The notes: generated by a model from the letters alone, not told the origin. DNA of 64,000 nucleotides from Candidatus Bathyarchaeia archaeon (GCA_038882955.1 JAVZNC010000002.1:221209-285208); one strand, 5' to 3'; positions 1 through 42,767 are shown, counted from the stretch's first letter. Made by a program: numbers and translations.

Positions 1-1013
1 CCGCCAGCACCGTCAAAGTATACCGCGTCAATCTTTGCTTCGGAGGCTATTTTTAGGGTGTATGCCACTGCTGTTGGTCTGTATGCGCCAGTTTTTAGTG
101 TCACGTGCTTTGCGCCTTGCTTGCGCAGCCATTCTATGTCTTCAATCATGTTCTTTTCTTTCGGTATTCCAACGCGGCTGTGTCTCTCGAAGGATTTGAA
201 GACTCCTTCTTTGAATGCTTGCTGCACTGTAGGGTCTTCTGGGTCTGGGATAACTATATATCCTCTTTTCTTTAGCATTATCGCCTTTTGCAAGTCTCTT
301 ACGCGAACCTCGCCTCCAATCGCCTTTGCTCCTTGTCCCCACTTTCTCTCTATTACGTTGACTTCCAGTTTTGAGATGGCGTAGACGTCAACTCCCAAGC
401 GTTGGTCTTCAACGTTTGTTTGGACGGCTATGTCTCCGTATTTTTCATCCCAGAACTTCCTGAACAAGTCTACTCTGCGTTTTAATTCTTTCGAATAGGT
501 GACCTTGCCATTTGTGAATTGCGCTTCTGGGTCCATGCCGCAGACGTTTTCTCCGACGATTATTATGGCGCCTGACAATGCTGTGCCTATGGCTAATCCT
601 TCCCAGTTTAGTCTTGCAACGTCTGTTGAGCCGAAGGCGCCGCATAAAACTGGTATTTTTAGTGGTATGCCTGCAACGACCGTTTCTGTGCTTGCGTTTG
701 GAAACAGCGCAACATCGGAGTTTTCCTCTATTCCTAAAGCTTCAAAAAGTCCAGCTTGTATGTTGAAGTGTGACCAATCCAGTCCAAAGTCTTTGAGGGC
801 GCCTGCTGTGCTGTATCCGAATTGTACTGGTTCTGGGTATAGTGCTTCTCTTCCTCTGAAAGCTGAAAGTCCAATTTCGCACATTATTGGGCAGTCGCGG
901 ATGCATATCGGGCACATTCCGCTTGTTGGGCTTGTGTCTTTGACTCGTGTGGTTGTTCCTGTTGTCGATTTTCCGTTCAAATAAGAACTGTTTCTAAACA
1001 CGCGTTCGGTCAT
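1..1013 (-). CDS. FMN-binding glutamate synthase family protein (archaeal GltB2-like), 5' part; runs off the window
   Basis: Absent from the ORF track (no stop in window). Manual translation from ATG 1013: MTERVFRNSSYLNGKST...SGMCPICIRDCPIMCEIG...ERKWGQGAKAIGGE...LKTGAYRP...DGAGG, carrying the KxGQGAKxxxGG and DGxxGG motifs of the glutamate synthase FMN domain. Confidence 0.85.
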   Translation of the reverse strand, partial: MTERVFRNSSYLNGKSTTGTTTRVKDTSPTSGMCPICIRDCPIMCEIGLSAFRGREALYPEPVQFGYSTAGALKDFGLDWSHFNIQAGLFEALGIEENSDVALFPNASTETVVAGIPLKIPVLCGAFGSTDVARLNWEGLAIGTALSGAIIIVGENVCGMDPEAQFTNGKVTYSKELKRRVDLFRKFWDEKYGDIAVQTNVEDQRLGVDVYAISKLEVNVIERKWGQGAKAIGGEVRVRDLQKAIMLKKRGYIVIPDPEDPTVQQAFKEGVFKSFERHSRVGIPKEKNMIEDIEWLRKQGAKHVTLKTGAYRPTAVAYTLKIASEAKIDAVYFDGAG

Positions 1014-1100
1014 CTTCTTCACCCTTTTACGTTTGTAAATTTCGGTATGAAGGGGTTAATTTTAGTCAACATTTAAACATTACCCTAGAAACAGCGAAAA

Positions 1101-1120
1101 ATGAACATGAATGTACATGA
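1101..1120. promoter_or_regulatory. Putative operator, tandem ATG(A/T)ACATGA
   Basis: ATGAACATGA-ATGTACATGA, a 10-bp direct repeat ~90 bp upstream of the gltB-like start; the same core recurs at 1961-2007 and 3845-3873. Confidence 0.5.
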
Positions 1121-1142
1121 AGCGTGCAATTTTACCTCGCCA

Positions 1143-1868
1143 TTAAAGAACATCTATTTGTAAGCCCTTAACTGTGTACTCTCGCCGCTGATATGTTTGC
1201 GGATTATACCTTCCACCAGCCTTCTTTATCTGCAAAAAGTTTTTGTCACCCTGCCTTGAAAGGTCAATAACAACTTGTGTCATATGCTCAATTATTGCAC
1301 AAAACTCTTTTGGATGCGCGTTCTTCGCCATCGTCCAACAAGCAAGAGTTTGATAAGCATACAATGCGGGGCAAACATGCCCAAAAAACGTCTTGACCGC
1401 GTCTCTTCCCCAATTATGCTCCATAATTGACAAACTGTTAAAAACAAGCCTTGTACCTGGAGTTACAAATTCTCTTTCAATTCTCCCGAAAAAGTGGTGA
1501 AAACGCTCTGGATCTTTGGAGCTTGGAACTTTTCTAATCCACGTTGGTGCCTTGTCATAAAAATCACTGAATATGAGTTCGCCTTGTCCAGCTGCTTCTG
1601 AAAAACAGTCTAATACTAGCAGTTTCTTTTCCCATCCGTCTGGCAATGACTTGGTTAACGGTTCAAGTTGGAGTATCAGCGCTTGTGGAGGATATATGAA
1701 ATCTAGGTAAATTACCTGCTTTCCTTCTAATAGTCCTTGACGCATAAATGAATATAAAAATTCTCTCGCGAAGGTTCCAGATTCAACCTCCCACAAAACA
1801 TTCTCTCCTAGGAATAAACCGCCTTCAAGGAGCTTGTCTAGGCTTTTTATTCCAGTTGAATGAGGCAT
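1143..1868 (-). CDS. KaiC/RAD55-like RecA-fold protein with degenerate Walker motifs
   Basis: STGIKSLDKLLEGGL N-terminus and LQIKKAGG C-terminus are typical of KaiC-like domains. Walker A reads EVESGTFAR and Walker B reads VFNSL. Start taken at MPHSTG (1868); the ORF track extends to 1967. Confidence 0.8.
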   Translation of the reverse strand: MPHSTGIKSLDKLLEGGLFLGENVLWEVESGTFAREFLYSFMRQGLLEGKQVIYLDFIYPPQALILQLEPLTKSLPDGWEKKLLVLDCFSEAAGQGELIFSDFYDKAPTWIRKVPSSKDPERFHHFFGRIEREFVTPGTRLVFNSLSIMEHNWGRDAVKTFFGHVCPALYAYQTLACWTMAKNAHPKEFCAIIEHMTQVVIDLSRQGDKNFLQIKKAGGRYNPQTYQRREYTVKGLQIDVL

Positions 1869-1960
1869 TTGTTTTTCGCTTGTCAATGTTGTGCACCGTG
1901 TGTAAGAGTTTGCGGGCACCATTAAAAATGTTATGTTGTAATTTGGTTGTTTTATTGTGT

Positions 1961-2007
1961 TGTACAAGTGTGTACATAATGGACATAATATTTCTATAGT
2001 TGAACAT
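1961..2007. promoter_or_regulatory. Putative operator array in the divergent kaiC-like/gdh promoter
   Basis: TGTACA(1961), TGTACAT(1971), TGGACAT(1980), TGAACAT(2001). Confidence 0.5.
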
Positions 2008-2031
2008 TGCTTTTGTTAGTCTTCGGAAGGT

Positions 2032-3819
2032 GTGAAAAAGATGTTGAACTCGGTAGAACTTTCAGCTCGTGAATTAGGAATGCTCAAGTTAATGGTGGAC
2101 TTCTTCGCCGAAAAACCAGAGTTAACAGCAAAAATAGAAAGTTACACAACAGCCCACTATGCCTTACTGACAACGTACTCTGAAAACTTTGGCATACCCA
2201 TAGAAGATTCTCTAAAGGCTTTTGAAGAGCTAAGGAAGAAGTTGATGGATGCCGAGTACGTCCATGTGAAAGCGCCAGAACCCATAAAGAAACTTTTGCC
2301 CTTAACACGCGATGAACTTAATATGCTGCGCGTTCTCGCTGACTATTTCTCCGAGAGTCCAAAAATGGCTCCTGCTGGGGCTTTCCTCTCTAGGAAAGAA
2401 GACGCTTTAGTTGAGACGTATTTATGGTTTTACGGAAACAGTGAAGGCAACGGCGAAGTAGCGAGGGAAACTCTCAAAAACCTAGTTGAGAAACTCCAAA
2501 CGGCAGTTTTCGTCAAAGTGGATACATTGGCTCCTATTGCGGTTGCGCCAAACCCTTACGAAGCCGCCCTTAAACAGCTAGACGTGGCTGTCGAAAAACT
2601 GAATCTTGACCCGGGCATACACGAAATATTAAAGCGTCCAATGCGTACCCTCATCGTTAACATTCCAGTAGTCATGGACGACGGCAGCATTCAAGTTTTC
2701 ACCGGATACCGCGTGCAATACAATGACGCTTTGGGTCCAACAAAGGGCGGCATAAGATACCATCCAGACCTAACCCTGGACGAAGTCACAGCCCTAGCCG
2801 CTTGGATGACGTGGAAAACAGCCGTAACAGGTTTGCCTCTTGGCGGAGGCAAAGGTGGAATCAGATGCAATCCTAAGGAGATGTCAAGGGCAGAGCTTGA
2901 GCGCCTCACAAGAGGATATGTACGTGCCATAGCAAAGTTCATAGGACCCTTCACGGACGTGCCTGCCCCAGATGTGTACACAACTGCGGAAATGATGGCT
3001 TGGATAATGGACGAATACAGTGAAATAGTCGGTTATCCAGTTTTCGGCGTGGTGACTGGAAAACCTGTTCATGTTGGCGGTTCTCATGGAAGAAGCGAGG
3101 CTACATCAAGGGGACTCATGTACACAGTTGTCGAGGCAGCCAAACATCTCGGAATAAATCTCAAGGGTGCAACAGTTGCAGTGCAAGGATATGGAAACGT
3201 AGGCTATCATGCGGCACGCCTGCTACATGAAATCGGATGCAAAATAATCGCGGTTTCAGACTCTAAAGGTGGCGTTTATAACCCAGAAGGTTTGGACCCG
3301 GAAAAAGTTCTTGTTCACAAGGAGAAAACTGGTTCGGTGGTTGAATACCCTGGCAGCACTTTCATAACAAATGAGCAATTGTTAGAACTAGAATGCGACA
3401 TCTTGGTTCCAGCGGCGTTGGAAAACCAAATAACAAAGGAAAACGCTGCAAACATAAAAGCGAAAATCGTTGCAGAAGGGGCTAACGGACCTACAACTCC
3501 AGAGGCGGATGAAATTCTGTTCAAAAAAGGCGTTTTCGTAATCCCCGACATTCTCGCCAACTCCGGCGGAGTGATTGTCAGCTACTTTGAACAAGTGCAA
3601 AATCAAATGAACTATTACTGGACTGAAGAAGAGGTTAGGAATAAACTGAAGGAAACAATAACCAAAGCTTTCCACGATGTGCTCAAAATGTCAAAACAGT
3701 ACAATGTGAACATGCGCACAGCAGCCTACATGTTGGCCGTAAAAAGAGTGGCAGACGCGCTTGTAGCCAGAAAGGGCACAACGTTCAGCCCCATCGTACC
3801 ACCATTAACACCAAGTTAA
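2032..3819 (+). CDS. gdhA: Glutamate dehydrogenase (Glu/Leu/Phe/Val family) with a ~170-aa duplicated N-terminal extension
   Basis: Core from about aa 174: GPTKGGIRYHP, WKTAV..LPLGGGKGG, DVPAPDV, QGYGNVG, AEGANGPTT, PDILANSGGVIVSYFE. Confidence 0.95.
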   Translation: MKKMLNSVELSARELGMLKLMVDFFAEKPELTAKIESYTTAHYALLTTYSENFGIPIEDSLKAFEELRKKLMDAEYVHVKAPEPIKKLLPLTRDELNMLRVLADYFSESPKMAPAGAFLSRKEDALVETYLWFYGNSEGNGEVARETLKNLVEKLQTAVFVKVDTLAPIAVAPNPYEAALKQLDVAVEKLNLDPGIHEILKRPMRTLIVNIPVVMDDGSIQVFTGYRVQYNDALGPTKGGIRYHPDLTLDEVTALAAWMTWKTAVTGLPLGGGKGGIRCNPKEMSRAELERLTRGYVRAIAKFIGPFTDVPAPDVYTTAEMMAWIMDEYSEIVGYPVFGVVTGKPVHVGGSHGRSEATSRGLMYTVVEAAKHLGINLKGATVAVQGYGNVGYHAARLLHEIGCKIIAVSDSKGGVYNPEGLDPEKVLVHKEKTGSVVEYPGSTFITNEQLLELECDILVPAALENQITKENAANIKAKIVAEGANGPTTPEADEILFKKGVFVIPDILANSGGVIVSYFEQVQNQMNYYWTEEEVRNKLKETITKAFHDVLKMSKQYNVNMRTAAYMLAVKRVADALVARKGTTFSPIVPPLTPS

Positions 3820-3844
3820 CATCCCCCCTCCCCCCTTTTCTCTT

Positions 3845-3873
3845 ATGTACATTCAAGAATTTTTTATGAACAT
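3845..3873. promoter_or_regulatory. Putative operator upstream of the RHH regulator
   Basis: ATGTACAT...ATGAACAT, cores 21 bp apart, just before TTTAAAA (TATA-like). Confidence 0.5.
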
Positions 3874-3914
3874 GTTTAAAAGCAACCGATTCAAAAAATA
3901 ACCCGTGAAACAGC

Positions 3915-5873
3915 ATGTCCGTACACCTTCACACAACAATAACCAAAAAGACAAACGAGGTACTTGAAGAACTAGCAAAAACCTATGGCACAAAAAGCCG
4001 CGTTCTCGAAAAAGCCGTAGAAACTCTGCTTAGGGTTGACAAAGTTGGTTCTTGCGATGATTGCACAATAAAAGCAAAAATTAACGAACAAACCAAACTG
4101 AGAGAGGCGCTTGACCTAACATCGGTTAGCAGAAAAAGCCTTGACAGCCTCCTTGAAGTTGCCCTTGGAAACAGAACAGTTGAAGACTTGATAAGGGAAC
4201 AAAAAGCAGAGGCAAAGAACATAATCGAGATACTAAAAAGCTCTGTTGCATGGAGGGCTCCATCGACCTTCAAGGAGTTTCTACTGGTCCTAGAAGAGAT
4301 AAAAGGGCTTACAAACCTCTTTGACATTCCATCATACAGCGAAATCGACAGTGTAGCCGTGCTAAGACCCAGAGTCTTTAAACGCTTACCCGTAATGGTT
4401 GCCTTCCAAATTGCCACAATATTAGAGGGCATAGGCGTAAATTTCGACTTGCGAATTATGGGTGAAGACATAGCCATAAAAATGATTCGCCCCGAAATTT
4501 ACCCATTAAGGAGAAAGGAATTCGGCGAATTCTTGGAGCAACAGATTGAAAAAGAACTAGCAAATGTAACTCCAGGCTTGTTCAAAAACACACTTATGCT
4601 TGTTGGACCAGCCTTCATGAATTGGGCTGAGAAGCATCTTGAGGAACCAGTAACAGAATTGGGCAACTTCATAGAAGATGCAAGAACCGTTCTCGGCATC
4701 GACGAGTTTCCGAGGGAGCCAAAAGATTTTGTTAAGACTATTCTTTCGGCCTTTGTCAAAATGAACTGGTTTAGGCAAGTTAAAGTTTTAACAGAGAAAG
4801 AAGAGAACACCTTAGAACTTGTTTTCCAAGCAACGACAGCTCAAACAGCTCGTTTATCCTTAACAGTACTTTCGATAATGCTTGCAACACGCGGATGGAA
4901 GCTACTGCATCACTCAATTGAACATGCAAACGTGAACATGACAATAAAATACGTAGGCGCAGAAGACCAAAGCATCCTAGATCAACTAGCAGAACTCAAC
5001 CTTTTCCAAATAATAGGAAAACAATTCCTAGATGTTGTTCCAATCCCCCGCGACCTCTTCAACTCCTTCGCTGCAAAAGTATACGAAAGTGACAGACAAA
5101 AATTTGAAGAAATATACCGCGCAACAGGAGTCCGCATCTCCAACGCCATCCGCATGCTTGCTCGGGGCGACCCAGAAAAAATTGGTAGACTTTCCAAAAA
5201 CTTTATCATCAAAAGCATCAGCGTGACGCAGCCCGACGCTGAAGTAAGGTTTGTTGACGACGAGCACTTCACCATCATTTTTAAGCGGATAGACCCCCTT
5301 GTAATGAACAGCCAACGCATCTTAATAGAATCCATGTTTAAGGAGCTAGGCTACGAAGTTTCAACAACGACATTCCAGAACCTACTAAGCTTTAAACTAA
5401 AACTTTTGGAAAAGCCAGTTCTAGAACCCTTACCGCGGAAAAAGCTTATGCAAACACTAATCGAAGGAATGTCATGCAACTCCATCGAAGAAGCTTTCGC
5501 CGTTGAAAGAGAACAGTTGGACGCGCTTTTTCCAGAAGACTACCCGTGGACTATCAAAGATGTCGGTGAAAGGCTTATTGACATGTACCGCGAACTCGGC
5601 ATAGAAGTTGAAATAGAATATTTTGAAGGCGGCTTCACTCTCAAATACAAAAGTTGCCCCTATTACAAACTGGTCAAAACCAATCAGAAGACTTGGCTCT
5701 GCGGTCTTCGGAAGAAAACACTAGAATACATTATTTCTAGGGTTAGCCACGGCAAAAAGGGGCGAATGAAAATAATAAAATCTCTGCTCCAGAATGAGCA
5801 TCCATGCGAATACGCCATATTCCTAACAGGCTTCCTTGAAAAAGAAGAAAAACCAATTGAGACACAAAGCTAG
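3915..5873 (+). CDS. Multidomain putative regulator: N-terminal ribbon-helix-helix, repeated V4R-like alpha/beta domains and a C-terminal Cys-containing V4R-like domain
   Basis: MSVHLHTTITKKTNEVLEELAKTYGTKSRVLEKAVETL fits the RHH strand-helix-helix pattern, followed by CDDC. The C-terminus has YKSCPY...WLC...HPCEY, a V4R-like three-Cys pattern. Confidence 0.6.
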   Translation: MSVHLHTTITKKTNEVLEELAKTYGTKSRVLEKAVETLLRVDKVGSCDDCTIKAKINEQTKLREALDLTSVSRKSLDSLLEVALGNRTVEDLIREQKAEAKNIIEILKSSVAWRAPSTFKEFLLVLEEIKGLTNLFDIPSYSEIDSVAVLRPRVFKRLPVMVAFQIATILEGIGVNFDLRIMGEDIAIKMIRPEIYPLRRKEFGEFLEQQIEKELANVTPGLFKNTLMLVGPAFMNWAEKHLEEPVTELGNFIEDARTVLGIDEFPREPKDFVKTILSAFVKMNWFRQVKVLTEKEENTLELVFQATTAQTARLSLTVLSIMLATRGWKLLHHSIEHANVNMTIKYVGAEDQSILDQLAELNLFQIIGKQFLDVVPIPRDLFNSFAAKVYESDRQKFEEIYRATGVRISNAIRMLARGDPEKIGRLSKNFIIKSISVTQPDAEVRFVDDEHFTIIFKRIDPLVMNSQRILIESMFKELGYEVSTTTFQNLLSFKLKLLEKPVLEPLPRKKLMQTLIEGMSCNSIEEAFAVEREQLDALFPEDYPWTIKDVGERLIDMYRELGIEVEIEYFEGGFTLKYKSCPYYKLVKTNQKTWLCGLRKKTLEYIISRVSHGKKGRMKIIKSLLQNEHPCEYAIFLTGFLEKEEKPIETQS

Positions 5874-5931
5874 GTTTAAGCACCGTTCAGTAAGCATTTA
5901 TTAGCACTAACACGTATGAAAACTATGAGGG

Positions 5932-6909
5932 TTGTCCTTGAGTTTTGAGATGTGGGCTGAAAAGTACAGACCAAAAACATTGGATGAAATGGTTGACCAA
6001 AAGGAGATAGTTGAGCGATTAAAGAGCTTCGTTAAATCCAAAAATGTGCCACATTGCATTTTCGCTGGACCGCCTGGAACTGGAAAGACCACTGCTGCGC
6101 TTTGTTTGGCTAGGGACTTGTATGGAGATGCTTACCGAGAGCACATAATGGAGTTGAACGCTAGCGACGAGAGGGGTATAGACGTTGTGAGGGAAACTGT
6201 CAAAACCTTTGCTCGTGTGCGGTCTATTGGCGAAATACCATTTAAACTTATGATTTTAGATGAAGCGGACAACATGACTGCCGATGCTCAGCAAGCCCTA
6301 AGGCGTACAATGGAGCGGTATACTGAAACATGCCGTTTCATTTTATGTGCAAACTACAGCGGAAAAATAATTGAGCCTATACAGTCACGCTGCGCCCCGT
6401 TTCGTTTCACATTTCTGCCAAGGGAAGAACATGACAAATACCTTAAGTGCATAGCGGAAAACGAAGGCATCAAACTTCTGAAGGACGGATTGGACGCGAT
6501 TTTTGAGGTTTGCGGCGGCGATTTGCGAAAGGCGATAAACACGCTTCAAGCTGCTGCATCGCTGAACAAGCCAATAGACGCGAAGGTTGTTTATTCCATT
6601 GCGGGTAGGGCTCACCCAGCAGATGTGCAGAAAATGATAGAAACTGCGATTAACGGCGACTTTCTAGAAGCCAGAAAACAACTGCGCGACATGATTCAAA
6701 AATATGGTGTGGCTGGAAGCGACATAATTAGGCAAATTCACACCGAAATTTTCAGAGCGGATATTCCAGAGCCTTGGAAAATAAAGTTGGCAGACATTGT
6801 CGGCGATATAGATTATAGGCTTGTTGAGGGCGCAGACGAGGAGGTTCAGCTAAGCGCCTTGTTGGCGAGGCTTGTGGAGGCTGGCTACGAGATTAAAAAG
6901 ACAAGTTAG
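5932..6909 (+). CDS. rfcS: Replication factor C small subunit
   Basis: WAEKYRP, GPPGTGKT, ELNASDERG, LDEAD, IQSRC; no intein. Confidence 0.97.
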   Translation: MSLSFEMWAEKYRPKTLDEMVDQKEIVERLKSFVKSKNVPHCIFAGPPGTGKTTAALCLARDLYGDAYREHIMELNASDERGIDVVRETVKTFARVRSIGEIPFKLMILDEADNMTADAQQALRRTMERYTETCRFILCANYSGKIIEPIQSRCAPFRFTFLPREEHDKYLKCIAENEGIKLLKDGLDAIFEVCGGDLRKAINTLQAAASLNKPIDAKVVYSIAGRAHPADVQKMIETAINGDFLEARKQLRDMIQKYGVAGSDIIRQIHTEIFRADIPEPWKIKLADIVGDIDYRLVEGADEEVQLSALLARLVEAGYEIKKTS

Positions 6910-6920
6910 GTGCAAAGTGT

Positions 6921-8180
6921 TTGTACGCTGCTTGGACTGTTAAGCACAAGCCAAAATCCCTAGACGAAATCGTTGGAAACAAAGAGGCTATCCAAACCTT
7001 TATTGAATGGATAAAATCTTGGGAGAAAGGCATACCCAAAAAACGTGCAGCTTTCATTTTTGGTCCTCCAGGCATTGGAAAAACAGTTACCGTTGAGGCT
7101 CTTGCCGCTGATTTTAAGATGGAACTTGTTGAGAAAAACGCAAGCGACTATAGGACTGAAGAGGCGATTAACCGTTTTGCTGGTTTAGCTTCGCAGTATG
7201 GCTCGCTTTTCGGCGGCAAAAGAATCATACTGTTGGATGAGCTTGACGGGCTTACTGGCACAGCTGACAAGGGCGGCGTTAAAGCCATAACAGACATTGT
7301 TAAAATTGCCCAGTGCCCAATAGTTTTGATTGCAAACAACGCTTATGACCCAAGATTTGCCAATCTCCGCAACTACTGCCTACTAATAGAGTTTAAGAAG
7401 CCGCCAACAAGCGAAGTCATGAAACATTTGAAGCGCATATGCATCCGTGAGGGAATACAAGCAGACGATGACGCCTTAAAGTTTATTGCACAGCGTTCAG
7501 AAGGCGATGTCCGCTCGGCAGTTAATGACCTTCAAGCATTAGCCCAAGGCAAGAAGAGACTGACGTATGAGGATGTTTCTTGGCTTGGCTATAGGGATAG
7601 GCAAGACACCATTTTTAATGTTTTGAGAATGATAATTTATGCGCGTACATGCAACAGCGCAAAACAAGCGTTTGACATGGCTGACGTTGACATTGATATG
7701 CTTTTTGAGTGGATTTACGAGAACGTTCCAGCGCATTTAACTGAACCGCACGATTTGGCAAGGGCTATGGATGCGCTTTCGATGGCAGACGTCTATCGGG
7801 GCAGAATCCGCTCCACACAAGATTGGAGTTTCACGCGCTACGTTATTGATTACATGACCGCTGGCGTTGCAATGGCTAGGCAAAACACGAAGACACGCGG
7901 GTTTATACCATTCAAGTTTCCAACGCGCATACAAATGTTGTCTAGGTCCAAGGCTGAACGTGCAATACAACTAAACATTGGACAGAAGATTAAGCGAAAA
8001 TGTCACATATCCGCTAATAGAGCTTCAAAGGAGATAATCCCCTACCTTAAGATAATATTCAAGAATAATGTTGAAATGGCTGCCGGACTTGCAAAATGGC
8101 TTGATTTGGACGTGGAAATGATTGAGTATCTGACAGAGGATAAGAAAAAAGCGGATGCCATTGCTAAACTTGTAGGTTAA
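6921..8180 (+). CDS. rfcL: Replication factor C large subunit
   Basis: WTVKHKP, GPPGIGKT, NASDYR, LDELD, GDVRSAVNDLQ; follows rfcS. Confidence 0.95.
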   Translation: MYAAWTVKHKPKSLDEIVGNKEAIQTFIEWIKSWEKGIPKKRAAFIFGPPGIGKTVTVEALAADFKMELVEKNASDYRTEEAINRFAGLASQYGSLFGGKRIILLDELDGLTGTADKGGVKAITDIVKIAQCPIVLIANNAYDPRFANLRNYCLLIEFKKPPTSEVMKHLKRICIREGIQADDDALKFIAQRSEGDVRSAVNDLQALAQGKKRLTYEDVSWLGYRDRQDTIFNVLRMIIYARTCNSAKQAFDMADVDIDMLFEWIYENVPAHLTEPHDLARAMDALSMADVYRGRIRSTQDWSFTRYVIDYMTAGVAMARQNTKTRGFIPFKFPTRIQMLSRSKAERAIQLNIGQKIKRKCHISANRASKEIIPYLKIIFKNNVEMAAGLAKWLDLDVEMIEYLTEDKKKADAIAKLVG

Positions 8181-8216
8181 AAAGAAAAGGGAAGATTAAA
8201 TTTTCCGCTTTTGTTA

Positions 8217-10316
8217 TTACTGCGGTGGCTGTGTTGGTTGTGCTGGTGGTGCCGCTTTTGGTTTTCTAAAAGGCATTAGGAGCGCTATTGCCGCCAAAAC
8301 TAGTGCTATTATGCCGAGTCCTAAGCCGCCTAGAGCAAACATGAGTGTTGTAGTGTCAACAGCTTGAGCCGTTAGCGTTGTTGATGCGCTTTCGGCCGCT
8401 TTATAAATGTCGTCTCCGCTCCAGCTTGCTGTTATTTGCCATTGTCCAATTTGGTCTGCTGTGAATGTGTCTGTGAAAGCTCCTGCTTGGTTTGAATAAA
8501 CAGTTTTTGTGCTTATTGAACCGTCTGGCTTCGTGTATTTGAGGGTTATTGTCGCTATTTTTGCTGGGTACAATGTGCCGCTTACGCTTATGTTTCCTCC
8601 GACTGTTGTTGTGTAGCTTGAGAGTGTTAGGACTATTAGGCTTGAAGCTTTTTCAACTGTGAATGTGGTTGTTGCGGCTGCTGTTTCATGCTCATAGTCG
8701 CCTTTCCAGCTTACTCGAATCATGTAGTTTCCAGCGGCTTCTGGGATCCAAGCGAACGTGTATTCTCCATTTTCGTTTGTTATAACCTTGTCTAATGTTA
8801 TTAGAACTGGTAAGGGGTCACGTGAAAATTCTATTGTTACTTCAGCGTTTGGTATTGGCGTGTCACCCGTTTCGTTTGTTAATCTGCCGCTTATTGTCAC
8901 TTGATTGCCTATAACAATGCTTGGCGAGCTTACATTCACAGTTATTGAACTCGCAACTTTGCTGACGCTCCATATTGCTAATTCAGATTTTTCTGTAACA
9001 ACCATGAGTTGCCATTTGTAACCCGCTGTTAGTACTTCGATGTTTCCATCATTGTCCACGTCGCCACAAGTGACATCTTCAATGTTTGACGCTTCTTTCC
9101 ATTCTGCTGTATCTTTTGTGGTTAAAGTTTTTCCGTCCCACGAGAAAATTGTGATAACTGGTGTGGAGCTGAAAAGTATTGCAACGTCTGAGCAGGCAAT
9201 TATCTCGTTTTTGCCGTCCTTATCTATATCATATATCGTCACCGCTTTGCCTGATGTACCTGTAAGAAGCCCTACTAAGCCATTCTCCACACTTAACTTC
9301 AATATTAAGAGGTTTCCGTCCCACGACCATATTCTTAATTGTGAATAGTAGTTTTCTCCGTTGAATTGTTTTCCAATTGTAACAATTTCTTTCTTTCCAT
9401 CAGAATCTATATCTCCTACCGCGGCGTCGACTGAGTATGTGTCTAGGTATGTGTACCATTTGGTGCTTGCTTTCCATGTAAGGTCTGCACCGTCCCAAGT
9501 GCATATCCCAAGCACTGCACAATCATGGCCAAGTGTTTTGTCGTAGAAGTATCCAGTAATAATTATTTCAATGGTTCCGTCCCCGTCTACATCGTCCACC
9601 GCCACCGAATGCCATTCGGTGTTTCCGCTGATGAGCCGCTCTTGGCTTGTTTCAAGTGTCAATTTTGTGTCAGTGATATTCCAAATTGTTATTACTCCAT
9701 GAAATCCTGTTCCGGAGAGTGACGTGGTGTTTCTGTAGCCTACGGCAATTATCTCTGTCGTGTTGTCTTTATCCACGTCGCCTATTGCAACATCAAAAAA
9801 CTTCGTTTCATTGACCTCAGTAGGCCAGTACTGAATGGTTTTCCTTTCCATCGCCGTTCCATTCCAACCTAAAACAATTAGCAATCCTTGTTCCATTATG
9901 CCTAGGAGTTTTCCGTACCCGGCTACCACAATTTCTGTGTCTGTTTTGTTGTCAACGTTTCCTAACGCTACGGCATAAAAGCGTGTGTCGGAGGACCACG
10001 TATATGTTTGGTCAATGATTTCTTTATGTTCTTCTGTTAAATATGTGCCATTCCAGTTCCAAACGTTCACTTCGCCCCAGTAAAAGTTCCACGTGGAGTT
10101 GTAAGTGTATCCCGCTGTAACAATTTCCGTTGCTCCATCTCCATCGATGTCTCCTGCGGCATTTGCCAATGAATAGCTATCATTTTCCGTAAGCCATTCT
10201 TGATTCTTTTCTAAAGTGAGCCCGCTTGATGCGTGTGCTATGTTTGGCATAAAAGTCATTAGCAACGTTGCGACAATTAAAAACCCTACAAATTTTTTGC
10301 CTAGTTTCTCTTTCAT
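8217..10316 (-). CDS. Membrane-anchored surface protein with a 7-blade FG-GAP/VCBS propeller and Ig-like stalk
   Basis: Signal peptide, seven D(I/V)DxDGxxEI-type repeats, two Ig-like beta domains, C-terminal TM helix and Pro-rich tail. Confidence 0.8.
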   Translation of the reverse strand: MKEKLGKKFVGFLIVATLLMTFMPNIAHASSGLTLEKNQEWLTENDSYSLANAAGDIDGDGATEIVTAGYTYNSTWNFYWGEVNVWNWNGTYLTEEHKEIIDQTYTWSSDTRFYAVALGNVDNKTDTEIVVAGYGKLLGIMEQGLLIVLGWNGTAMERKTIQYWPTEVNETKFFDVAIGDVDKDNTTEIIAVGYRNTTSLSGTGFHGVITIWNITDTKLTLETSQERLISGNTEWHSVAVDDVDGDGTIEIIITGYFYDKTLGHDCAVLGICTWDGADLTWKASTKWYTYLDTYSVDAAVGDIDSDGKKEIVTIGKQFNGENYYSQLRIWSWDGNLLILKLSVENGLVGLLTGTSGKAVTIYDIDKDGKNEIIACSDVAILFSSTPVITIFSWDGKTLTTKDTAEWKEASNIEDVTCGDVDNDGNIEVLTAGYKWQLMVVTEKSELAIWSVSKVASSITVNVSSPSIVIGNQVTISGRLTNETGDTPIPNAEVTIEFSRDPLPVLITLDKVITNENGEYTFAWIPEAAGNYMIRVSWKGDYEHETAAATTTFTVEKASSLIVLTLSSYTTTVGGNISVSGTLYPAKIATITLKYTKPDGSISTKTVYSNQAGAFTDTFTADQIGQWQITASWSGDDIYKAAESASTTLTAQAVDTTTLMFALGGLGLGIIALVLAAIALLMPFRKPKAAPPAQPTQPPQ

Positions 10317-27648: not shown

Positions 27649-29049
27649 TTAAACGTAAAGATACTTCTGCAACTCCCAAGACGTTACATGCTCTTCGATT
27701 CCAGAAGCGTGCTTTTCGTATTCCCTCCACTCTTGCATCTTCAGCTCAAAATATTTCTCAGAGTTTTCCCTGCCTAAAGCACGTACACAAACTTCGTCGC
27801 TTTTCCATTCTTCTAGCGCCTCTTTGAGTGAAGATGGCAAAACCTTTATGCCCAACTCTTTTCGTCGGGACTCGCTTAAACGGTAGACATTCATTTCAAC
27901 TGGTTCTCCAGGGTCAATCTTTCTCTTAATTCCATCCATTCCAGCCTCCAAAACCACCGCGTAGGTGAGGTAAGGGTTACAAAGCGGGTCTGGACATCTG
28001 AATTCTATTCTTGCCTCGTTTTCTTTTCCTGGAAAATACTCTGGCACTCTTATCAGTGACGAGCGGTTTCTTTTGCTCCATGTGACATAAACTGGGGCTT
28101 CATAGCCTGGCACAAGCCTCTTGTAACTGTTTACGGTTGGGGCTACTATTGCGCATAAAGCTCTTGCATGTTCAAGTAAGCCGCCTATAAAGTATCGGCA
28201 TTTCTGTGAAATGTTCGCGTAGCCTTTACCATCATAGAAAATGTTTGTTCCATTTTTCGCGTCAAAAATGCCAATGTGAATGTGCATACCGCTTCCAGGC
28301 TTTCCAAACCACGGCTTTGGCATGAACGTCGCAGTCCACCCATATTTCTTTTCAGCCACGGCTTTTGCCGCAAGTTTGTAGCGCATTATGTTATCAGAAG
28401 TTGTCAGCGGGTCTGAATATTTGAATGTAATCTCGTTTTGAGCAGACCCAGCTTCGTGGTGTTGGCGTTCGACGGTTATTCCCATTATGCTTAGGGTGTT
28501 GGATAGTTCCATGCGGTACTGTTCCGTAAAGTCTCTATTTGGGGCTATGTCAAAGTATCTATGTTTATCTATCAAGTTATTTTCAACAGGGCAAATTTCG
28601 TCTTTCTCGTCTTTCTGTACTAGGTAGAACTCTATTTCCGCGGCTGCCGTAGGCTTATAGCCTTCGCTTAAAGCCTTTTCCATTGCCTTCTGGCATATGT
28701 ATCGGGAATCGCCTTCAAAACGTTTGCCATCTGGTCTGTAGATGTCGCATATGAAGATTGCAACGCTTTTTTCGTAAAAGTAGTATGGACAAACCGTAAA
28801 TGTTGTTGGGTCGGGCTTCATAATCATGTCGCTTTCTTCTATGCCGACGCCGCCTATTATTGAGGAACCGTCGAAGCCTACTCCTTCTTTTAGGGCGTTT
28901 TCGCCTTCTTCTGCCGGGATTGTTCTGCCCTTAAGATACCCCAAAATATCCGTAAAGTGTAAGAGTACGTAATCAGCGTTCTTCATAAGCCTAATACATA
29001 AATCAAACTTTTTAGCGTGGTTCTCTTCTGCGTATAGCATGGCTTTCAC
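27649..29049 (-). CDS. glnA: Glutamine synthetase type I
   Basis: FDGSSI, EIEFY, HHEAG..QNEI, FMPKP..GSGMHIH, NSYKRLVPGYEAP, NRSSLIRVP, EFRCPDP. Confidence 0.92.
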   Translation of the reverse strand: MKAMLYAEENHAKKFDLCIRLMKNADYVLLHFTDILGYLKGRTIPAEEGENALKEGVGFDGSSIIGGVGIEESDMIMKPDPTTFTVCPYYFYEKSVAIFICDIYRPDGKRFEGDSRYICQKAMEKALSEGYKPTAAAEIEFYLVQKDEKDEICPVENNLIDKHRYFDIAPNRDFTEQYRMELSNTLSIMGITVERQHHEAGSAQNEITFKYSDPLTTSDNIMRYKLAAKAVAEKKYGWTATFMPKPWFGKPGSGMHIHIGIFDAKNGTNIFYDGKGYANISQKCRYFIGGLLEHARALCAIVAPTVNSYKRLVPGYEAPVYVTWSKRNRSSLIRVPEYFPGKENEARIEFRCPDPLCNPYLTYAVVLEAGMDGIKRKIDPGEPVEMNVYRLSESRRKELGIKVLPSSLKEALEEWKSDEVCVRALGRENSEKYFELKMQEWREYEKHASGIEEHVTSWELQKYLYV

Positions 29050-29157
29050 CTGCTTATGAACAAATTTTTAATAAAAGGAATACTTTGTATAAGTATAAAA
29101 AGTTTCTTTCTAAAATTAAGCGCAAATGTTAAATAATAAACGTTGTAGACTAAATAG

Positions 29158-29625
29158 ATGTGCATTTTGGATGTGGGGGCTATGGTGCTAGACGAAACGG
29201 ATATTAAAATACTAAAAGTGTTGACTTCCGATGCTAGGCTTTCGTCGAGGCAAATAGCTGACCAATGCGGAGTTTCCGTTGGCACGGTTCTGTCGCGCAT
29301 AAAAAGAATGGAAAACGAGGGAATAGTGCAGGGTTATTCAGCCATTCTCGACCATGAAAAGCTAGGATATGAACTAACTGTTGTCAGCGAAATAACGGTT
29401 TCAAAGGGCAGACTGTTGGAAGTTGAAAATGAGATTGCAAAACTACCAAACGTTTGCTGCGTCTACGACGTGACAGGACTAATAGACGCAATAATAATTG
29501 CAAAATTCAAAAACCGCCAAGAACTAAGCAAATTCACAAAACGCCTACTCTCGCTGCCATATGTTGAAAGAACAAACACCCACGTAGTGCTAACAACAAT
29601 AAAAGAAGACTTCCGCATAATCTAA
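29158..29625 (+). CDS. Lrp/AsnC transcription regulator, divergent from glnA
   Basis: LDETDIKILKVL..DARLS HTH, RIKRMENEGIVQGY, VYDVTG. Confidence 0.93.
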   Translation: MCILDVGAMVLDETDIKILKVLTSDARLSSRQIADQCGVSVGTVLSRIKRMENEGIVQGYSAILDHEKLGYELTVVSEITVSKGRLLEVENEIAKLPNVCCVYDVTGLIDAIIIAKFKNRQELSKFTKRLLSLPYVERTNTHVVLTTIKEDFRII

Positions 29626-35429: not shown

Positions 35430-36467
35430 TTATTCAAGGCTATCTATGTAATTGCGTATGTCCTCGGTTGCAGCTGAAGGAATTGGCAAGTCTTTCATTG
35501 TCAATAACCCTGGGCGTGCCTTAATCACCTTTGGAATTGCATTTGCAACCATCGCGACGGTTCCTATGTCACCGTGGATGCATGGTTGTATTTTTTGCCT
35601 TATTTCTGGGACTCCTTCAATTGTTATGGCGTCATACTCTTCTTCAGCGCCTAGATAAGCTTGGAACTCAAGCGTTATTACTTCTTTGTTCTTCATCATC
35701 CCTTTAGCCTTTTGTTTCAAACCTGCCACATCGCCAGCCTTAACTTCTATAAATTGACTTTTTACTGGTTTTTTGGCAATGACCGGTTCAACCTGTTCGG
35801 CTATGATTTTATCTAGTTTCCATGCAAGGGCGTCAGCAAACATTGCTATGGATTGTTCAAGCCCCACATGTCCAGTGATCTGTTTGCTTTCCATTTTTTG
35901 CCTAAATTCTTCCACGGTTAGTCCAGCACCTATCTTTTTTTGGAATGGTAATCGCCTTTTTGTCGCATCCATAACCCTTGCTGCTTCTATTTTTTCGATT
36001 TTCTGGCAAACCGCCGTTAACATTATGACAAGCGTGTCCATCAAGAAGCCCGGGTTAATGCCCGTACCAAGCACCGTAGTGTTGTATTTTTTGGCTAGGG
36101 CGTCTAATTTTTTTGCAAGTTTTGGCTCAGTGTAGTATGGATAAGTCAATTCTTCACACGTGGATATCACTTTTAAGCCGTTTTTTACAAGTGAAGCTAT
36201 TTGCGGGTACGTATCTTTAAGATAGGATGATGTTGCGTGTATTGCCAAATCCGCTCTAACCTTAGATAGGGCTTCATCAACGTCCTTTGAAATTTTTATT
36301 CCAAGACTTTTTGGCGCTCCTAATACTTCGCTCAAGTCTTTGCCCACCTTATCTTTCGCAACGTCTACGGCTCCAACGATTTCTACGCCATCCTTTTCCA
36401 ATAGAAATTTGGCGATTAACGTTCCAACTGCGCCAACGCCGAATAGGATAACCCTTACTTTGCGCAT
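35430..36467 (-). CDS. NAD(P)-dependent oxidoreductase, 2,4-diaminopentanoate dehydrogenase/DapB-like family
   Basis: GVGAVG, STCEEL, LGTGINPGFLMD, RRLPFQKKIGAG, GHVGL, GDIGT. Confidence 0.8.
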   Translation of the reverse strand: MRKVRVILFGVGAVGTLIAKFLLEKDGVEIVGAVDVAKDKVGKDLSEVLGAPKSLGIKISKDVDEALSKVRADLAIHATSSYLKDTYPQIASLVKNGLKVISTCEELTYPYYTEPKLAKKLDALAKKYNTTVLGTGINPGFLMDTLVIMLTAVCQKIEKIEAARVMDATKRRLPFQKKIGAGLTVEEFRQKMESKQITGHVGLEQSIAMFADALAWKLDKIIAEQVEPVIAKKPVKSQFIEVKAGDVAGLKQKAKGMMKNKEVITLEFQAYLGAEEEYDAITIEGVPEIRQKIQPCIHGDIGTVAMVANAIPKVIKARPGLLTMKDLPIPSAATEDIRNYIDSLE

Positions 36468-36596
36468 GTGTGTTTCACCTTCTCTTCTCTTCATTGTTTT
36501 TAGCTTATAAAATGTGCTTGCAGCATTTGTGGGATAGAGCATTGTTTAGAAACCTTTACATTTGTAAACCTTTATATCCATGAGAAAACTCAAACT

Positions 36597-38045
36597 ATGA
36601 GAGGGCCTCAAGTCTTGGCGACTGCAGAAGCCACGATGCATAAGGAAGAAATCAGAAAGCTTCTGAGCACTGAAAAGCTTAAGCACTGCTTTGAATGTGG
36701 CATTTGCACCGCAAGCTGTTCAATGGTTGAACTGCTTGGAGATGATTATAATCCACGGGGGCTTCTCGAAAAAATTTTCTTAAATGCGGAAGACGCATTA
36801 TCTTCGCATGAGCTTTGGCTATGCGCATGGTGTTACAAATGCCATAGGCGATGTCCACAAGCTCTAGAAGTTCCAGAAATCTTTCTTCTTATGCGAACAA
36901 TCGCCGTTAAACGCGGCTATATACACCCTCTGGAAAAAGCTATACAAAAAGTTGCACGAAACATCCCATTACCCCTCATAGTTACACTTGTATGCTTGCA
37001 TCCAGAGCGTGCTGGACTTAACATACAAGACGTTTTGGAAAAGGTTCAGGATGAACGCACTAAACTGAAAATGAAAAAGACGCTAAAAGGCAGTAAATGT
37101 AAAGTAGCGGTTTTAGGTTCTGGACCAGCAGGTTTAACTGTTGCTTATGAGCTTGTTCGAAAGGGTTATCCAGTAACGGTTTTTGAGTCTCTTTCAGAGC
37201 CCGGGGGAATGCTTAGAAAGTGTATACCGGAGTATCGCTTGCCAAGGGACGTTTTAGAGGATGAATTGCGTTTTTTGGAGAGTTTAGGTGTTGAGTTTAA
37301 AGTTAACGTGCATGTAGGTAAGGACTTGGGTTTTGATGATTTGTGGGATGAAGGTTATAGGGCTATTTTTGTTGGTGTTGGCGCCCATAAAAGTCAGAAA
37401 TTGAAGATTGATGGCGGAGACTTGAAGGATGTTGTTCACGCTCTAGATTTTTTGTGGCAGGTTAAAAGCGGCGTGAAAGTTGAGCTTGGCAAAAACGTTG
37501 CAGTTATTGGCGGCGGAAATGTGGCTGTAGATGCCGCCAGAACCGCTTTAAAACTCGGCGCAGAAAATGTGACAATATTCTATCGAAGGTCGAGGACTGA
37601 AATGCCCGCGAATCCGTGGGAGGTTAAGGAATCAGAGGAAGAAGGCGTAAAAACAGAGTTTTTGGTAGCTCCAAAGAGAATTTTAGGAGAAAATGGACAC
37701 GTTTCAGCTGTTGAGTTTGTCCGCATGCAGCTAGGCGAATTGGACGAGTCTGGTAGAAGAAAACCTTTACCAATAGAGGGTTCAGAGTTTGTTTTCAAAG
37801 CGGATACCATTATTTTGGCGATTGGCGAGGCTCCAGACTTAGAGTTTTTACCTAAAGGCATCGTTCTTAATGATGATGGAACAGTTTGGGTTAACCCCAT
37901 AACCATGGAAACAAGTATGCGTGGAGTTTTTGCTGGTGGAGACGTTGTTACTGGTCCAGCATCGGTTATTGAGGCTATTTGCGCTGGAAAACGTGCCGCC
38001 AACTCCATTGACCGCTACCTAAAGGCTGAGGGAGGCATGGGTTGA
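36597..38045 (+). CDS. HdrC-like 2x[4Fe-4S] domain fused to a GltD/NfnB-like FAD/NADPH oxidoreductase
   Basis: CFECGICTASC and WLCAWCYKCHRRCP (HdrC type), then GSGPAG, IPEYRLP, GGGNVAVDAAR, YRRSRTEMPA, GVFAGGD. Confidence 0.88.
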   Translation: MRGPQVLATAEATMHKEEIRKLLSTEKLKHCFECGICTASCSMVELLGDDYNPRGLLEKIFLNAEDALSSHELWLCAWCYKCHRRCPQALEVPEIFLLMRTIAVKRGYIHPLEKAIQKVARNIPLPLIVTLVCLHPERAGLNIQDVLEKVQDERTKLKMKKTLKGSKCKVAVLGSGPAGLTVAYELVRKGYPVTVFESLSEPGGMLRKCIPEYRLPRDVLEDELRFLESLGVEFKVNVHVGKDLGFDDLWDEGYRAIFVGVGAHKSQKLKIDGGDLKDVVHALDFLWQVKSGVKVELGKNVAVIGGGNVAVDAARTALKLGAENVTIFYRRSRTEMPANPWEVKESEEEGVKTEFLVAPKRILGENGHVSAVEFVRMQLGELDESGRRKPLPIEGSEFVFKADTIILAIGEAPDLEFLPKGIVLNDDGTVWVNPITMETSMRGVFAGGDVVTGPASVIEAICAGKRAANSIDRYLKAEGGMG

Positions 38046-40483: not shown

Positions 40484-40486
40484 AGC

Positions 40487-40777
40487 ATGCCAGAAAGAAT
40501 TTGGCGTAAACCCCTTGACAGCGAGAAAGCAAAGCCACTGAAAGCAGAAATTCACATAATTCGCGACCAGTGTAAAGGCTGCGGCTTCTGCATTCAATAC
40601 TGCCCCCAAAAAGTTTTGGAAGAATCAAATGATATTAATGCGCGTGGGGTTCACCCGCCAAGGGTTGTTAACGAAAGCAAATGTGTTTTGTGCAGTTTTT
40701 GCACATCGGTTTGTCCAGATTTCGCCATATTCGTGATCGAAAAGAAGGAGCGAGAAGAAAATGTCAAGCATAATTAA
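40487..40777 (+). CDS. korD: 2-oxoacid:ferredoxin oxidoreductase delta subunit (ferredoxin)
   Basis: CKGCGFCIQYCP and CVLCSFCTSVCPDFAI. Confidence 0.85.
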   Translation: MPERIWRKPLDSEKAKPLKAEIHIIRDQCKGCGFCIQYCPQKVLEESNDINARGVHPPRVVNESKCVLCSFCTSVCPDFAIFVIEKKEREENVKHN

Positions 40778-41924: not shown

Positions 41925-42760
41925 CAACGGAGGTTGAACATCCGCTCTCACGGTATTTGCGAAAGGCTATGATGCCTCACATATGGTGTTCTGGATGTGG
42001 CAACGGCATAATCCTCAACTGCTTCGTTCACGCAGTGGATGAGCTGCAAATGGACATGGACAAGCTTGTGGTTGTTTCTGGAATTGGCTGTATTGGGCGT
42101 GCAGCGGGCTACATAAACACAAATTCCTTCCACACAACACACGGTCGCCCAATAGCTTTTGCTACTGGAGTGAAACTTGCTAACCCAAACCTTGAAGTAG
42201 TCGTCATAAGTGGCGACGGCGACCTCTTCGCAATTGGTGGAAACCACTTCATACATGCAGCGCGGAGAAACATAGGGATAAAGGTGATCTGCGCAAACAA
42301 CTTCAATTATGGAATGACTGGTGGACAACAGGGACCAACAACACCACTTGAAGCAATTACAACAACAACGCCTTATGGAAACATTGAGCATCCATTCAAC
42401 CTTGTTCACCTCGCTGCGGCTTCTGGGGCAACGTATGTGGCCAGGTGGACAACGCTTCATGTGCGCAGGTTGACGCAGTCAATTAAGAGGCTCTTGCAGA
42501 AGGATGGCTTCGGCTTTATTGAAGTTGTTTCGCCATGTCCCGAAATTTATGGTCGGCACAACAAGATGAGAACTGGACTTGAAATGATGGAGTGGTTTAG
42601 AAGAAGCTCCGTGGTGGAAAACTTTTCCGATCCTGCGAAGGCTGAAATTACTCCGCAAAGGATAGTTGTTGGAGAATTTATGAACATAGATAAGATAAGT
42701 TATGAGAGATTTCTCCATGAGAAGATAGCGCATATAAATGAGGAGAAAATGTGGCGGTGA
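41921..42760 (+). CDS. korB: 2-oxoacid:ferredoxin oxidoreductase beta subunit
   Basis: WCSGCG, SGIGC, HTTHGR, GDGD..AIGGNH (TPP motif), YGMTGGQ. Confidence 0.92.
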   Translation: MTTEVEHPLSRYLRKAMMPHIWCSGCGNGIILNCFVHAVDELQMDMDKLVVVSGIGCIGRAAGYINTNSFHTTHGRPIAFATGVKLANPNLEVVVISGDGDLFAIGGNHFIHAARRNIGIKVICANNFNYGMTGGQQGPTTPLEAITTTTPYGNIEHPFNLVHLAAASGATYVARWTTLHVRRLTQSIKRLLQKDGFGFIEVVSPCPEIYGRHNKMRTGLEMMEWFRRSSVVENFSDPAKAEITPQRIVVGEFMNIDKISYERFLHEKIAHINEEKMWR

Positions 42761-42767
42761 TTTAAAT

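Follow-up and report, generated by a model that had tools for sequence, protein, structure and literature searches.

What kind of control system, if any, ties together four genes whose intergenic regions all carry the same short motif? This question is raised by the first 5.9 kb of a 64,000-nucleotide stretch (G000:C2:221209-285208, here called the window) from the genome of an uncultivated hot-spring archaeon; the near relatives of the proteins encoded in it are all named Bathyarchaeia. The four genes encode a flavoprotein annotated as related to glutamate synthase, a KaiC-like protein, a glutamate dehydrogenase (GDH) with an N-terminal extension, termed GDH1, and a large protein termed P4. 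An earlier reading of the window, made from the sequence only, had proposed a self-contained switch between glutamate synthase (GOGAT) and GDH formed by all four. The comparative analysis described here reveals that the conserved unit is smaller, and consists of the trio pseudo-KaiC, GDH1 with its extension and P4. This cassette is a real, conserved and unannotated unit, apparently composed of a one-component regulator and its operator together with two orphan partner modules. P4 is probably the regulator that acts on the repeated motif, a reading that we favour with reasonable, not high, confidence.

Gene regulation in Bathyarchaeia and in Asgard archaea is almost unstudied, and few of these organisms have been cultivated. 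A literature search, which had the paper on KaiC-like hubs and all supplements outside its scope, returned no paper describing the cassette, P4 or the extended GDH.

A shared operator in three intergenic regions

The genome assembly (1.54 Mb in 31 contigs, 95.6% complete) contains the gene set that the sequence-only reading had recognized, that is, a synthase-like gene and a KaiC-like gene on the minus strand, followed by the extended GDH gene and a large open reading frame (ORF) of 652 amino acids (aa) on the plus strand. The features of the locus, in window coordinates, are as follows (BRE, transcription factor B recognition element; RHH, ribbon-helix-helix).

1..1022, minus strand: 5' part of the flavoprotein gene (340 of 538 codons), which runs off the window start and ends at G000:C2:220614
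1071..1078, minus strand: TATA-like TTTAAA of the flavoprotein promoter, kept in related loci
1102..1117, unstranded: tandem boxes TGAACA-N4-TGTACA (ATGAACAT / ATGTACAT), 23 nt upstream of the flavoprotein TATA box
1143..1868, minus strand: gene for a KaiC/RadA-fold pseudo-ATPase of ~241 aa, with the ATPase motifs lost
1922..1929, minus strand: TATA-like box of the KaiC-like gene, in a conserved GTTAAAAATGTT block according to the alignment of related loci
1961..1985, unstranded: three phased boxes, TGTACA (1961), TGTACA (1971) and TGGACA (1980), which abut the BRE/TATA of GDH1
1992..2006, plus strand: TATA-like TTCTATA of GDH1 (1992-1998), N2 and a fourth box TGAACA (2001-2006), a conserved array
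2041..2547, plus strand: orphan N-terminal domain of GDH1, 169 aa, a tandem duplication of ~80 aa
2548..3819, plus strand: catalytic part of GDH1, an ELFV dehydrogenase with a GGGKGG motif
3846..3872, unstranded: boxes TGTACA (3846) and TGAACA (3867), 21 bp apart, the second abutting the P4 TATA box
3875..3882, plus strand: TATA-like TTTAAAAG of the P4 promoter, 33 nt 5' of the ATG
3915..5873, plus strand: P4, 652 aa, unannotated family; RHH-like aa 1-45 at 3915-4049, MetOD1/V4R-like aa 552-635 at 5568-5819

The box is TGNACA, the core of ATGTACAT, and it is often found in the full form ATGNACAT. Boxes start at 1102 and 1112 in the first intergenic region (IG1), at 1961, 1971, 1980 and 2001 in the second (IG2), and at 3846 and 3867 in the third (IG3). 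Together with one further TGTGCA at 1890, which is counted in the total, this amounts to nine boxes in the 387 bp of the three regions, against 0.73 expected (Poisson 8e-8), confirming the common motif that the sequence-only reading had reported in all three. No random genome segment contained nine boxes (n=20000, maximum 6). Across the genome, ATGNACAT occurs at 188 sites, which form just 4 pairs separated by 45 bp or less, 2 of them at this locus.

In intergenic alignments of related loci, the boxes and the TATA-like blocks are nearly the sole conserved columns, while the flanks have diverged. The tandem pair with N4 spacing in IG1 is present in 30/30 distinct sequences (31/31 loci). IG2 shows the arrangement box-N3-box-N6-TTCTATA-N2-TGAACA in all 42 distinct sequences, about half of them with an extra box 4 nt upstream. 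In IG3, TGTACA-N13-15-TGAACA followed by a TATA-like box is found in 45/49 distinct sequences and an N26 version in 3/49, so that the pattern fits 48/49; the IG3 of locus L035 has a variant arrangement. At the GDH1 and P4 promoters the boxes overlap, bracket or abut the BRE/TATA, whereas 23-32 nt separate them from the downstream TATA box at the KaiC-like and flavoprotein promoters. Such a variable placement with respect to the TATA box means that they are not core promoter elements. The operator is thus made of short, symmetric, palindrome-like subsites in helical phase (9-10 or ~21 bp apart), also at the promoter of P4 itself.

The boxes occur only where the cassette is present or recently was, and the regulon is local, tandem boxes being found elsewhere in five genomes at about the control rate. 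The other tandem-box places in the genome of the window lie inside long ORFs, with one exception after a pyrI-like ORF, the intergenic tandem pair TGGACATAATGTACA at G000:C6:61608. A copy of ATGTACAT at 44540 of the window was dismissed as an operator, given its location inside the serS coding sequence.

Conservation, inheritance and loss of the cassette

A locus survey with one genome per species returned 58 loci, and 43 of them hold the trio in the same order and orientation. Another 10 are cut by contig ends (L020, L026, L032, L036, L038, L040, L043, L050, L054 and L060), and the remaining 5 (L062-L066) have only 3' pieces of P4; among the latter, contig ends truncate L064 and L066, while L062 and L063 (with in-frame stops) and L065 are internal remnants. 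The linkage of the genes predicted from the sequence alone therefore stands for the trio, and fails for the flavoprotein gene, which is not a core member. Co-occurrence was examined in 401 genomes of the phylum. Full-length P4 is encoded in five of them (G000, G390, G109, G216 and G264), and the GDH1 extension and the intact KaiC-like gene occur in the identical five. In the search for P4, G228 yielded a C-terminal remnant, and two weak matches of 70 residues were taken as chance; G013 carries the KaiC-like gene as a three-piece pseudogene. For all four parts, the nonsynonymous rate (dN) is 0.05-0.07 and the synonymous rate (dS) exceeds 1.5 for the closest pair and is saturated for more distant ones, which indicates strong purifying selection on each of them. 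What is directly observed comprises the cis-elements and how well they are conserved, the joint inheritance of the trio, and this selection.

Divergence is greatest in L098 and L099, which show 73% and 67% identity to a partial protein named Promethearchaeota by NCBI. Their proteins are 50-52% (P4) and 38-41% (GDH1 extension) identical to those of the window, and they keep the gene trio and the box arrays in IG2 and IG3. The three genes are inherited together, as a single unit, by some Bathyarchaeia and by Asgard-like archaea. In these Asgard-like loci, pseudo-KaiC is followed not by the flavoprotein gene but by one for a PyrK/NfnA-like iron-sulfur (FeS) NAD-binding protein (L098 4342-5223, L099 2063-2896, minus strand), and no boxes precede that gene in either locus.

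In the genome of the window, the flavoprotein gene is followed, upstream of the window start, by a gene for a second GDH (GDH2), then GINS and then MCM, and the genes for the small and large subunits of replication factor C (RFC) lie 3' of P4. G013 keeps MCM, GINS, GDH2, the flavoprotein gene and the boxes; GDH1 and P4 are gone, and the KaiC-like gene lacks its 5' third, its three remaining pieces being 82-87% identical to the intact gene (L108, G013:C11:256000-270000). The 3' remnants of P4 in L006 (from G228), L062, L063 and L065 adjoin GINS-MCM or RFC in genomes without the cassette. This pattern looks like repeated loss of the cassette, with deletion scars apparently left behind.

The flavoprotein gene and the question of nitrogen assimilation

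The sequence-only reading had taken the flavoprotein for a GltB2-type glutamate synthase, and source annotations call it glutamate synthase-related or a member of the FMN-binding glutamate synthase family (FMN, flavin mononucleotide). The protein has 538 aa, with a start at 1013/1022, likely the ATG at 1013, located 7 nt after a GGTGA Shine-Dalgarno-like site, and its N-terminus holds a CxxCxxxCxxxC motif. Its match to PF01645 is partial and reaches 42 bits (model positions 185-296 of 369), which lends weak support to the synthase assignment, while no NCBIfam model matches. Judged from these profiles, it is a divergent FMN flavoprotein, distantly related to proteins of the Glu_synthase fold.

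The partner domains GATase_2 and GXGXG gave 0 matches each in G000, with controls positive in 13/14 and 14/14 genomes, respectively, and no ammonium transporter (Amt) was found there. NrpR (PF01995) and PII (PF00543) also gave 0 matches in this genome, and the GGAA-N6-TTCC operator is absent from the window (0 against 1.17 expected), so that the lack of these known elements of archaeal nitrogen regulation, already reported in the earlier reading, holds. The genome has two glnA genes. One of them (type I, 503 bits) is divergent from a gene for an Lrp/AsnC-family regulator at 27652-29622 of the window, a separate and conventional-looking control unit; a link between it and the boxes was dropped, there being no TGNACA pairs at that place.

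The flavoprotein gene is present in 94/401 genomes, against 5/401 for the cassette. Upstream regions were compared for the best 30 of the 94 orthologues (5 from cassette genomes, 25 from genomes without it), and tandem boxes are found in 4/5 of the former and in 1/25 of the latter, the one being G013. The cassette genome without them is G264, in which the flavoprotein gene is reoriented. When this gene has moved or turned (L041, L053, L056 and L105), the boxes are still ~24 nt upstream of its TATA-like box. No copy of the gene lies within 10 kb of the cassette in L044, L046, L047 and L049, and L098 and L099 lack it. Being widespread, missing beside the cassette in several lineages and box-less in G264, it was recruited to the regulon in a particular lineage, part of the Bathyarchaeia, and does not belong to its core.

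These data bear on the proposal of a nitrogen-assimilation switch between GOGAT and GDH, in which an RHH regulator would act on transcription and a KaiC-like adaptor on the GDH extension. In this genome the flavoprotein gene and GDH1 are both preceded by the common operator, which speaks for such a switch, as do the absence of NrpR and PII from G000 and the strict co-inheritance of pseudo-KaiC and the extension. It is nevertheless very unlikely, given that the flavoprotein shows just a partial and weak PF01645 match, that the genome lacks GATase_2, GXGXG and Amt, and that the flavoprotein gene is absent beside the cassette or box-less in the loci named above. What survives of the earlier proposal is a self-contained control unit for GDH with a common operator, and what lacks support is the switch with GOGAT.

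A different metabolic setting is provided by the genes at 35433-43310 of the window, which encode a 2,4-diaminopentanoate dehydrogenase, a GltD/NfnB-like FeS flavoprotein with an HdrC-like N-terminus, HdrA2, and the alpha, beta and gamma subunits of a 2-oxoacid:ferredoxin oxidoreductase, and which constitute an amino-acid fermentation context for GDH. As the genome lacks Amt, PII, NrpR and a true GOGAT, and has a 2-oxoacid:ferredoxin oxidoreductase, glutamate catabolism is more likely to be tuned than ammonia assimilation.

P4 as the candidate regulator

A total of 487 proteins match P4 at E<=0.001. The best 120 of these 487 have 633-672 aa and are 72-92% identical to it, and, among the matches listed, every homologue bearing a name is called hypothetical. 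No Pfam or NCBIfam model reaches its threshold on P4, a search of the ESM Atlas gave only its own family, and the 53 matches of a search among shorter proteins fit pieces of that family, none of them being a separate single-domain relative.

The N-terminus had been read as RHH. This assignment stays below the family threshold, with 14.3 bits for the window protein against a cut-off of 21.6 for RHH_3. What supports it is that RHH_3 appears in 9/23 P4 N-termini at E<=10 (best E 0.011) and that the match is colinear, P4 residues 6-40 aligning with model positions 6-41 of 44. Within aa 1-45, H4, H6, T7 and T8 are invariant in an alternating strand pattern, followed by a YG-T-K turn (G25-x-K27); the pattern and the turn agree with an RHH fold, and the invariant residues would fit a DNA-reading strand. 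An invariant CxxC comes next at aa 47-50 (C47/C50). On these grounds, P4 most likely binds the boxes through a ribbon-helix-helix-like N-terminus.

As to the V4R-like domains of the earlier reading, one C-terminal sub-threshold match remains, to the domain MetOD1 (PF18546), and the plural does not hold, since comparison of six overlapping segments of P4 with hhalign gave only trivial overlaps and no internal repeats, and V4R itself (PF02830) has no match in P4. The MetOD1 match covers aa 552-635 on model positions 58-141 of 142, with 16 bits against a cut-off of 23.8. PF18546 is seen in 20/28 P4 members at E<=1 (best 1.8e-4), always below threshold, and is precomputed on 3 of the 120 best homologues. 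C581, C596 and C631 are invariant in alignment A1, the first two also in the Asgard-like rows, and H629 and C631 are present in all rows that reach them; C47/C50 and C581/C596/C631 would form two Cys sites. According to excerpts of PMC5847659, MetOD1 is related to the V4R, HNOB and ATC hydrolase domains and has three conserved cysteines.

Could the reader of the boxes instead be pseudo-KaiC, or a factor not encoded in the cassette, with P4 as an enzyme or scaffold that does not bind DNA and simply travels with GDH1? The retention of boxes in G013 after the loss of P4 would agree with this, as would the failure of P4 to reach any family threshold and the five extra TGAACA-N3-TGAACA sites that G390 has outside the locus, against 1 in the control. 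This explanation is nonetheless highly improbable. The close relatives G228 and G204, which share the flavoprotein promoter sequence with G216 and G109, have neither the cassette nor the boxes; G013 looks like a recent loss, given the identity of its pseudogene to the intact gene; and the boxes at the promoter of P4 itself are kept in 48/49 sequences.

GDH1 and its orphan extension

The conserved start of GDH1, according to the orthologue alignment, is the ATG at 2041. The protein matches PF00208 with 298 bits and PF02812 with 196 bits and contains GGGKGG, as expected for an ELFV dehydrogenase; against NF040817 it scores 641 bits, under the equivalog cut-off of 750. The extension noticed from the window alone is borne out by 169 N-terminal residues with a mean column identity of 77% over 40 rows and a dN/dS of ~0.02-0.04, values that mark it as a translated and conserved domain. 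It is internally duplicated (hhalign 97.5%, E 7e-12) and bears no relation to P4 or to the KaiC-like protein in hhalign comparisons. Nothing significant was found for it in Pfam or among PDB sequences, apart from single-member noise in Pfam (GerE in 1/40 members, E 0.13, and GeBP-like in 1/40). Among 1.84 billion representatives, it gave 13 matches, which comprise one full-length GDH cluster, eleven short proteins and one coiled coil; the last of these, the long match P0133, was set aside as a spurious, low-complexity coiled-coil protein. Two proteins, P0126 and P0127 (170 and 165 aa), correspond to the extension alone, and could be either free-standing versions of it or the products of genes truncated at contig ends.

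This domain offers another candidate for DNA binding. The enzyme would then be its own regulator, with P4 and pseudo-KaiC serving as accessory sensors or chaperones. The tandem duplication of the extension is paralleled by the tandem boxes, the domain co-occurs perfectly with them under purifying selection, and it has no fold assignment that would exclude DNA binding. We regard the idea as unlikely, because the extension matches no DNA-binding family beyond single-member noise and because the DNA-binding signature of P4 is the better one and its own promoter carries boxes.

GDH2 is a canonical GDH of 419 aa at G000:C2:219284-220543 (L067:10281-11540, minus strand), directly downstream of the flavoprotein gene and just outside the window. 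With the catalytic part of GDH1 it shares 63% identity, and the GDH2-flavoprotein pair stays together when it is relocated (L053 and L105). In a FastTree tree of 87 GDH rows, those of GDH1 and GDH2 are cleanly split by one branch with support 100; L025, L032, L043 and L098, in which the extension is frameshifted, contig-cut or below the E-value limit, were counted as GDH1. The GDH2 promoter has a T-run followed by its own TATA-like TTTTAAAA, without boxes.

The pseudo-KaiC protein

A longer TTG frame of the KaiC-like gene, up to 1967, is not conserved. The profile of the protein matches SSO2452 (E 2e-5) and KaiC chains (E 1e-4), establishing homology of the RecA-type core, and the protein scores 22.9 bits with PF06745 (below the cut-off of 26.6) and 34.5 with PAXNEB (above the cut-off of 28). 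The degenerate Walker motif that the sequence-only reading had described is confirmed by alignment. The Walker A sequence GEPGTGKT of SSO2452 corresponds to VESGTFAR, and its catalytic TTEES to DFIYPP; the Walker A lysine and the catalytic glutamates are missing in all 39 orthologues listed and in the Asgard-like copies. C86, H122, H162, C164, H183 and H193 (numbering of alignment A3) are invariant.

A model for the cassette

The assignment of the box-binding protein, the sign of regulation, the signal and the partner roles of pseudo-KaiC and the GDH1 extension are inferred from the sequences as follows. The N-terminal RHH-like module of P4 would bind the phased ATGTACAT/TGNACA boxes as cooperating dimers, and its C-terminal part, with the Cys/His cluster and the MetOD1/V4R-like region, would sense a redox, metal or metabolite signal that alters binding. 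With boxes that bracket or abut the BRE/TATA, the GDH1 and P4 promoters should both be repressed by bound P4, which would so control its own synthesis. The upstream boxes of the KaiC-like promoter, and of the flavoprotein promoter in this lineage, may allow activation, as such a position can in archaea. Pseudo-KaiC and the GDH1 extension would act as protein-level partners.

Several points weigh against this model. The genes of the trio always co-occur, and consequently the comparative data cannot tell which of their products binds the boxes. In G013 the boxes persist although P4 is gone, and G264 has the cassette, yet no boxes at the flavoprotein gene. GDH2, with its own TATA-like box and no boxes, may lie outside the regulon. 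On the side of P4, every RHH and MetOD1 match is below the Pfam thresholds, and no relatives are detectable for aa 60-540 (~480 residues). The only match of the P4 profile among PDB sequences is to a helix-hairpin-helix segment of NAD-dependent DNA ligase (E 0.0077), which the N-terminal stretch read as RHH-like thus resembles as well.

A more elaborate version, in which P4 would reciprocally repress GDH1 and activate the flavoprotein gene, the GDH1 extension and pseudo-KaiC would feed back on P4, and the whole would be a mobile unit moving between Bathyarchaeia and Asgard archaea, is doubtful. If it were true, such a reciprocal switch would represent an archaeal trigger-enzyme circuit built from a dead KaiC adaptor. 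Likewise, if the GDH1 extension does talk to the regulator, the cassette would exemplify a type of enzyme-coupled transcription control that is new.

With P4 as the probable regulator, the cassette could reveal how the glutamate node is controlled in amino-acid-fermenting archaea without PII or NrpR. It exposes three uncharacterised modules under strong purifying selection, namely the ~600-residue body of P4, the duplicated GDH domain and a pseudo-KaiC with conserved Cys/His positions. It also represents a compact set of parts for in vitro work, with one candidate regulator, three to four promoters of exact geometry and two partner proteins.

Neighbouring genes

The replication genes that flank the locus (GINS-MCM and RFC) were rejected as functional partners, their adjacency being lost or rearranged in L044-L049, L056, L098 and L099. 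In L108, the match to the RFC small subunit is interrupted by ~1.3 kb, perhaps an intein or an insertion. After the RFC genes, the window encodes on the minus strand (8220-10316) a 699-aa protein with FG-GAP repeats and bacterial Ig-like domains, probably a surface protein. PADLOC gave 0 matches for the four proteins of the locus, and Rfam 0 matches over positions 1-8200. Contigs from two runs labelled metatranscriptomic, though flagged as probably DNA, and from one DNA run match the locus just as short fragments of relatives, and yield no transcript starts, strands or levels.

Comparison with known systems

Repressors of the MetJ, Arc, CopG and omega type are ribbon-helix-helix proteins with tandem operator subsites. 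P4 resembles them in its short N-terminal strand-helix-helix-like module and in the phased palindrome-like boxes, which are also found at its own promoter. It differs from them in its size of 652 aa, with ~600 further residues of unknown fold, in the sub-threshold RHH match, and in its archaeal host, with the boxes around BRE/TATA.

PutA carries an RHH domain fused to proline dehydrogenase. The cassette shares with it the link between an amino-acid dehydrogenase and operator control of its own locus, but in PutA the DNA-binding domain is on the enzyme, whereas here the better DNA-binding candidate is a separate protein, P4.

MsvR, as presented in excerpts of PMC3729527, is a redox-sensitive regulator of methanogens with a V4R domain, whose cysteines change DNA binding and which binds boxes at its own promoter. 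Similarly, P4 joins a predicted DNA-binding module to a Cys-containing domain of V4R-like type and has boxes at its own promoter. Unlike MsvR as described there, it matches no helix-turn-helix or MsvR family, its MetOD1 match is sub-threshold, and it is much larger and tied to GDH and pseudo-KaiC.

The latter protein can be compared with the inactivated KaiC-like (iKaiC) domains that excerpts of PMC5847659 place in archaeal KaiC-like signalling hubs. Both belong to the KaiC superfamily and have lost the ATPase motifs, while pseudo-KaiC differs from the domains in that account in being stand-alone, in its ties to GDH and a probable RHH sensor, and in its conserved Cys/His positions.

For the TrmBL1 regulator of Pyrococcus furiosus, the effect depends on whether the site is upstream or downstream of BRE/TATA (PMC4706686, in excerpt), and the boxes of the cassette occupy both kinds of position. 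P4 is unrelated to the TrmB family, and the regulon here is local, in contrast to the global sugar regulon attributed to TrmBL1.

In the Bacillus subtilis RocG/GudB-GltC system, GDH functions as a trigger enzyme coupled to the regulator of a glutamate-synthase gene (excerpts of PMC6794564). In that account GltC is a bacterial LysR-type regulator and RocG has no extra domain, whereas the "synthase" of the present locus is not a true GOGAT and a contact between GDH1 and the regulator would be purely conjectural. Even so, the nearest logic is found in this system, given that GDH is here, too, genetically coupled to a candidate regulator of a glutamate-synthase-type gene.

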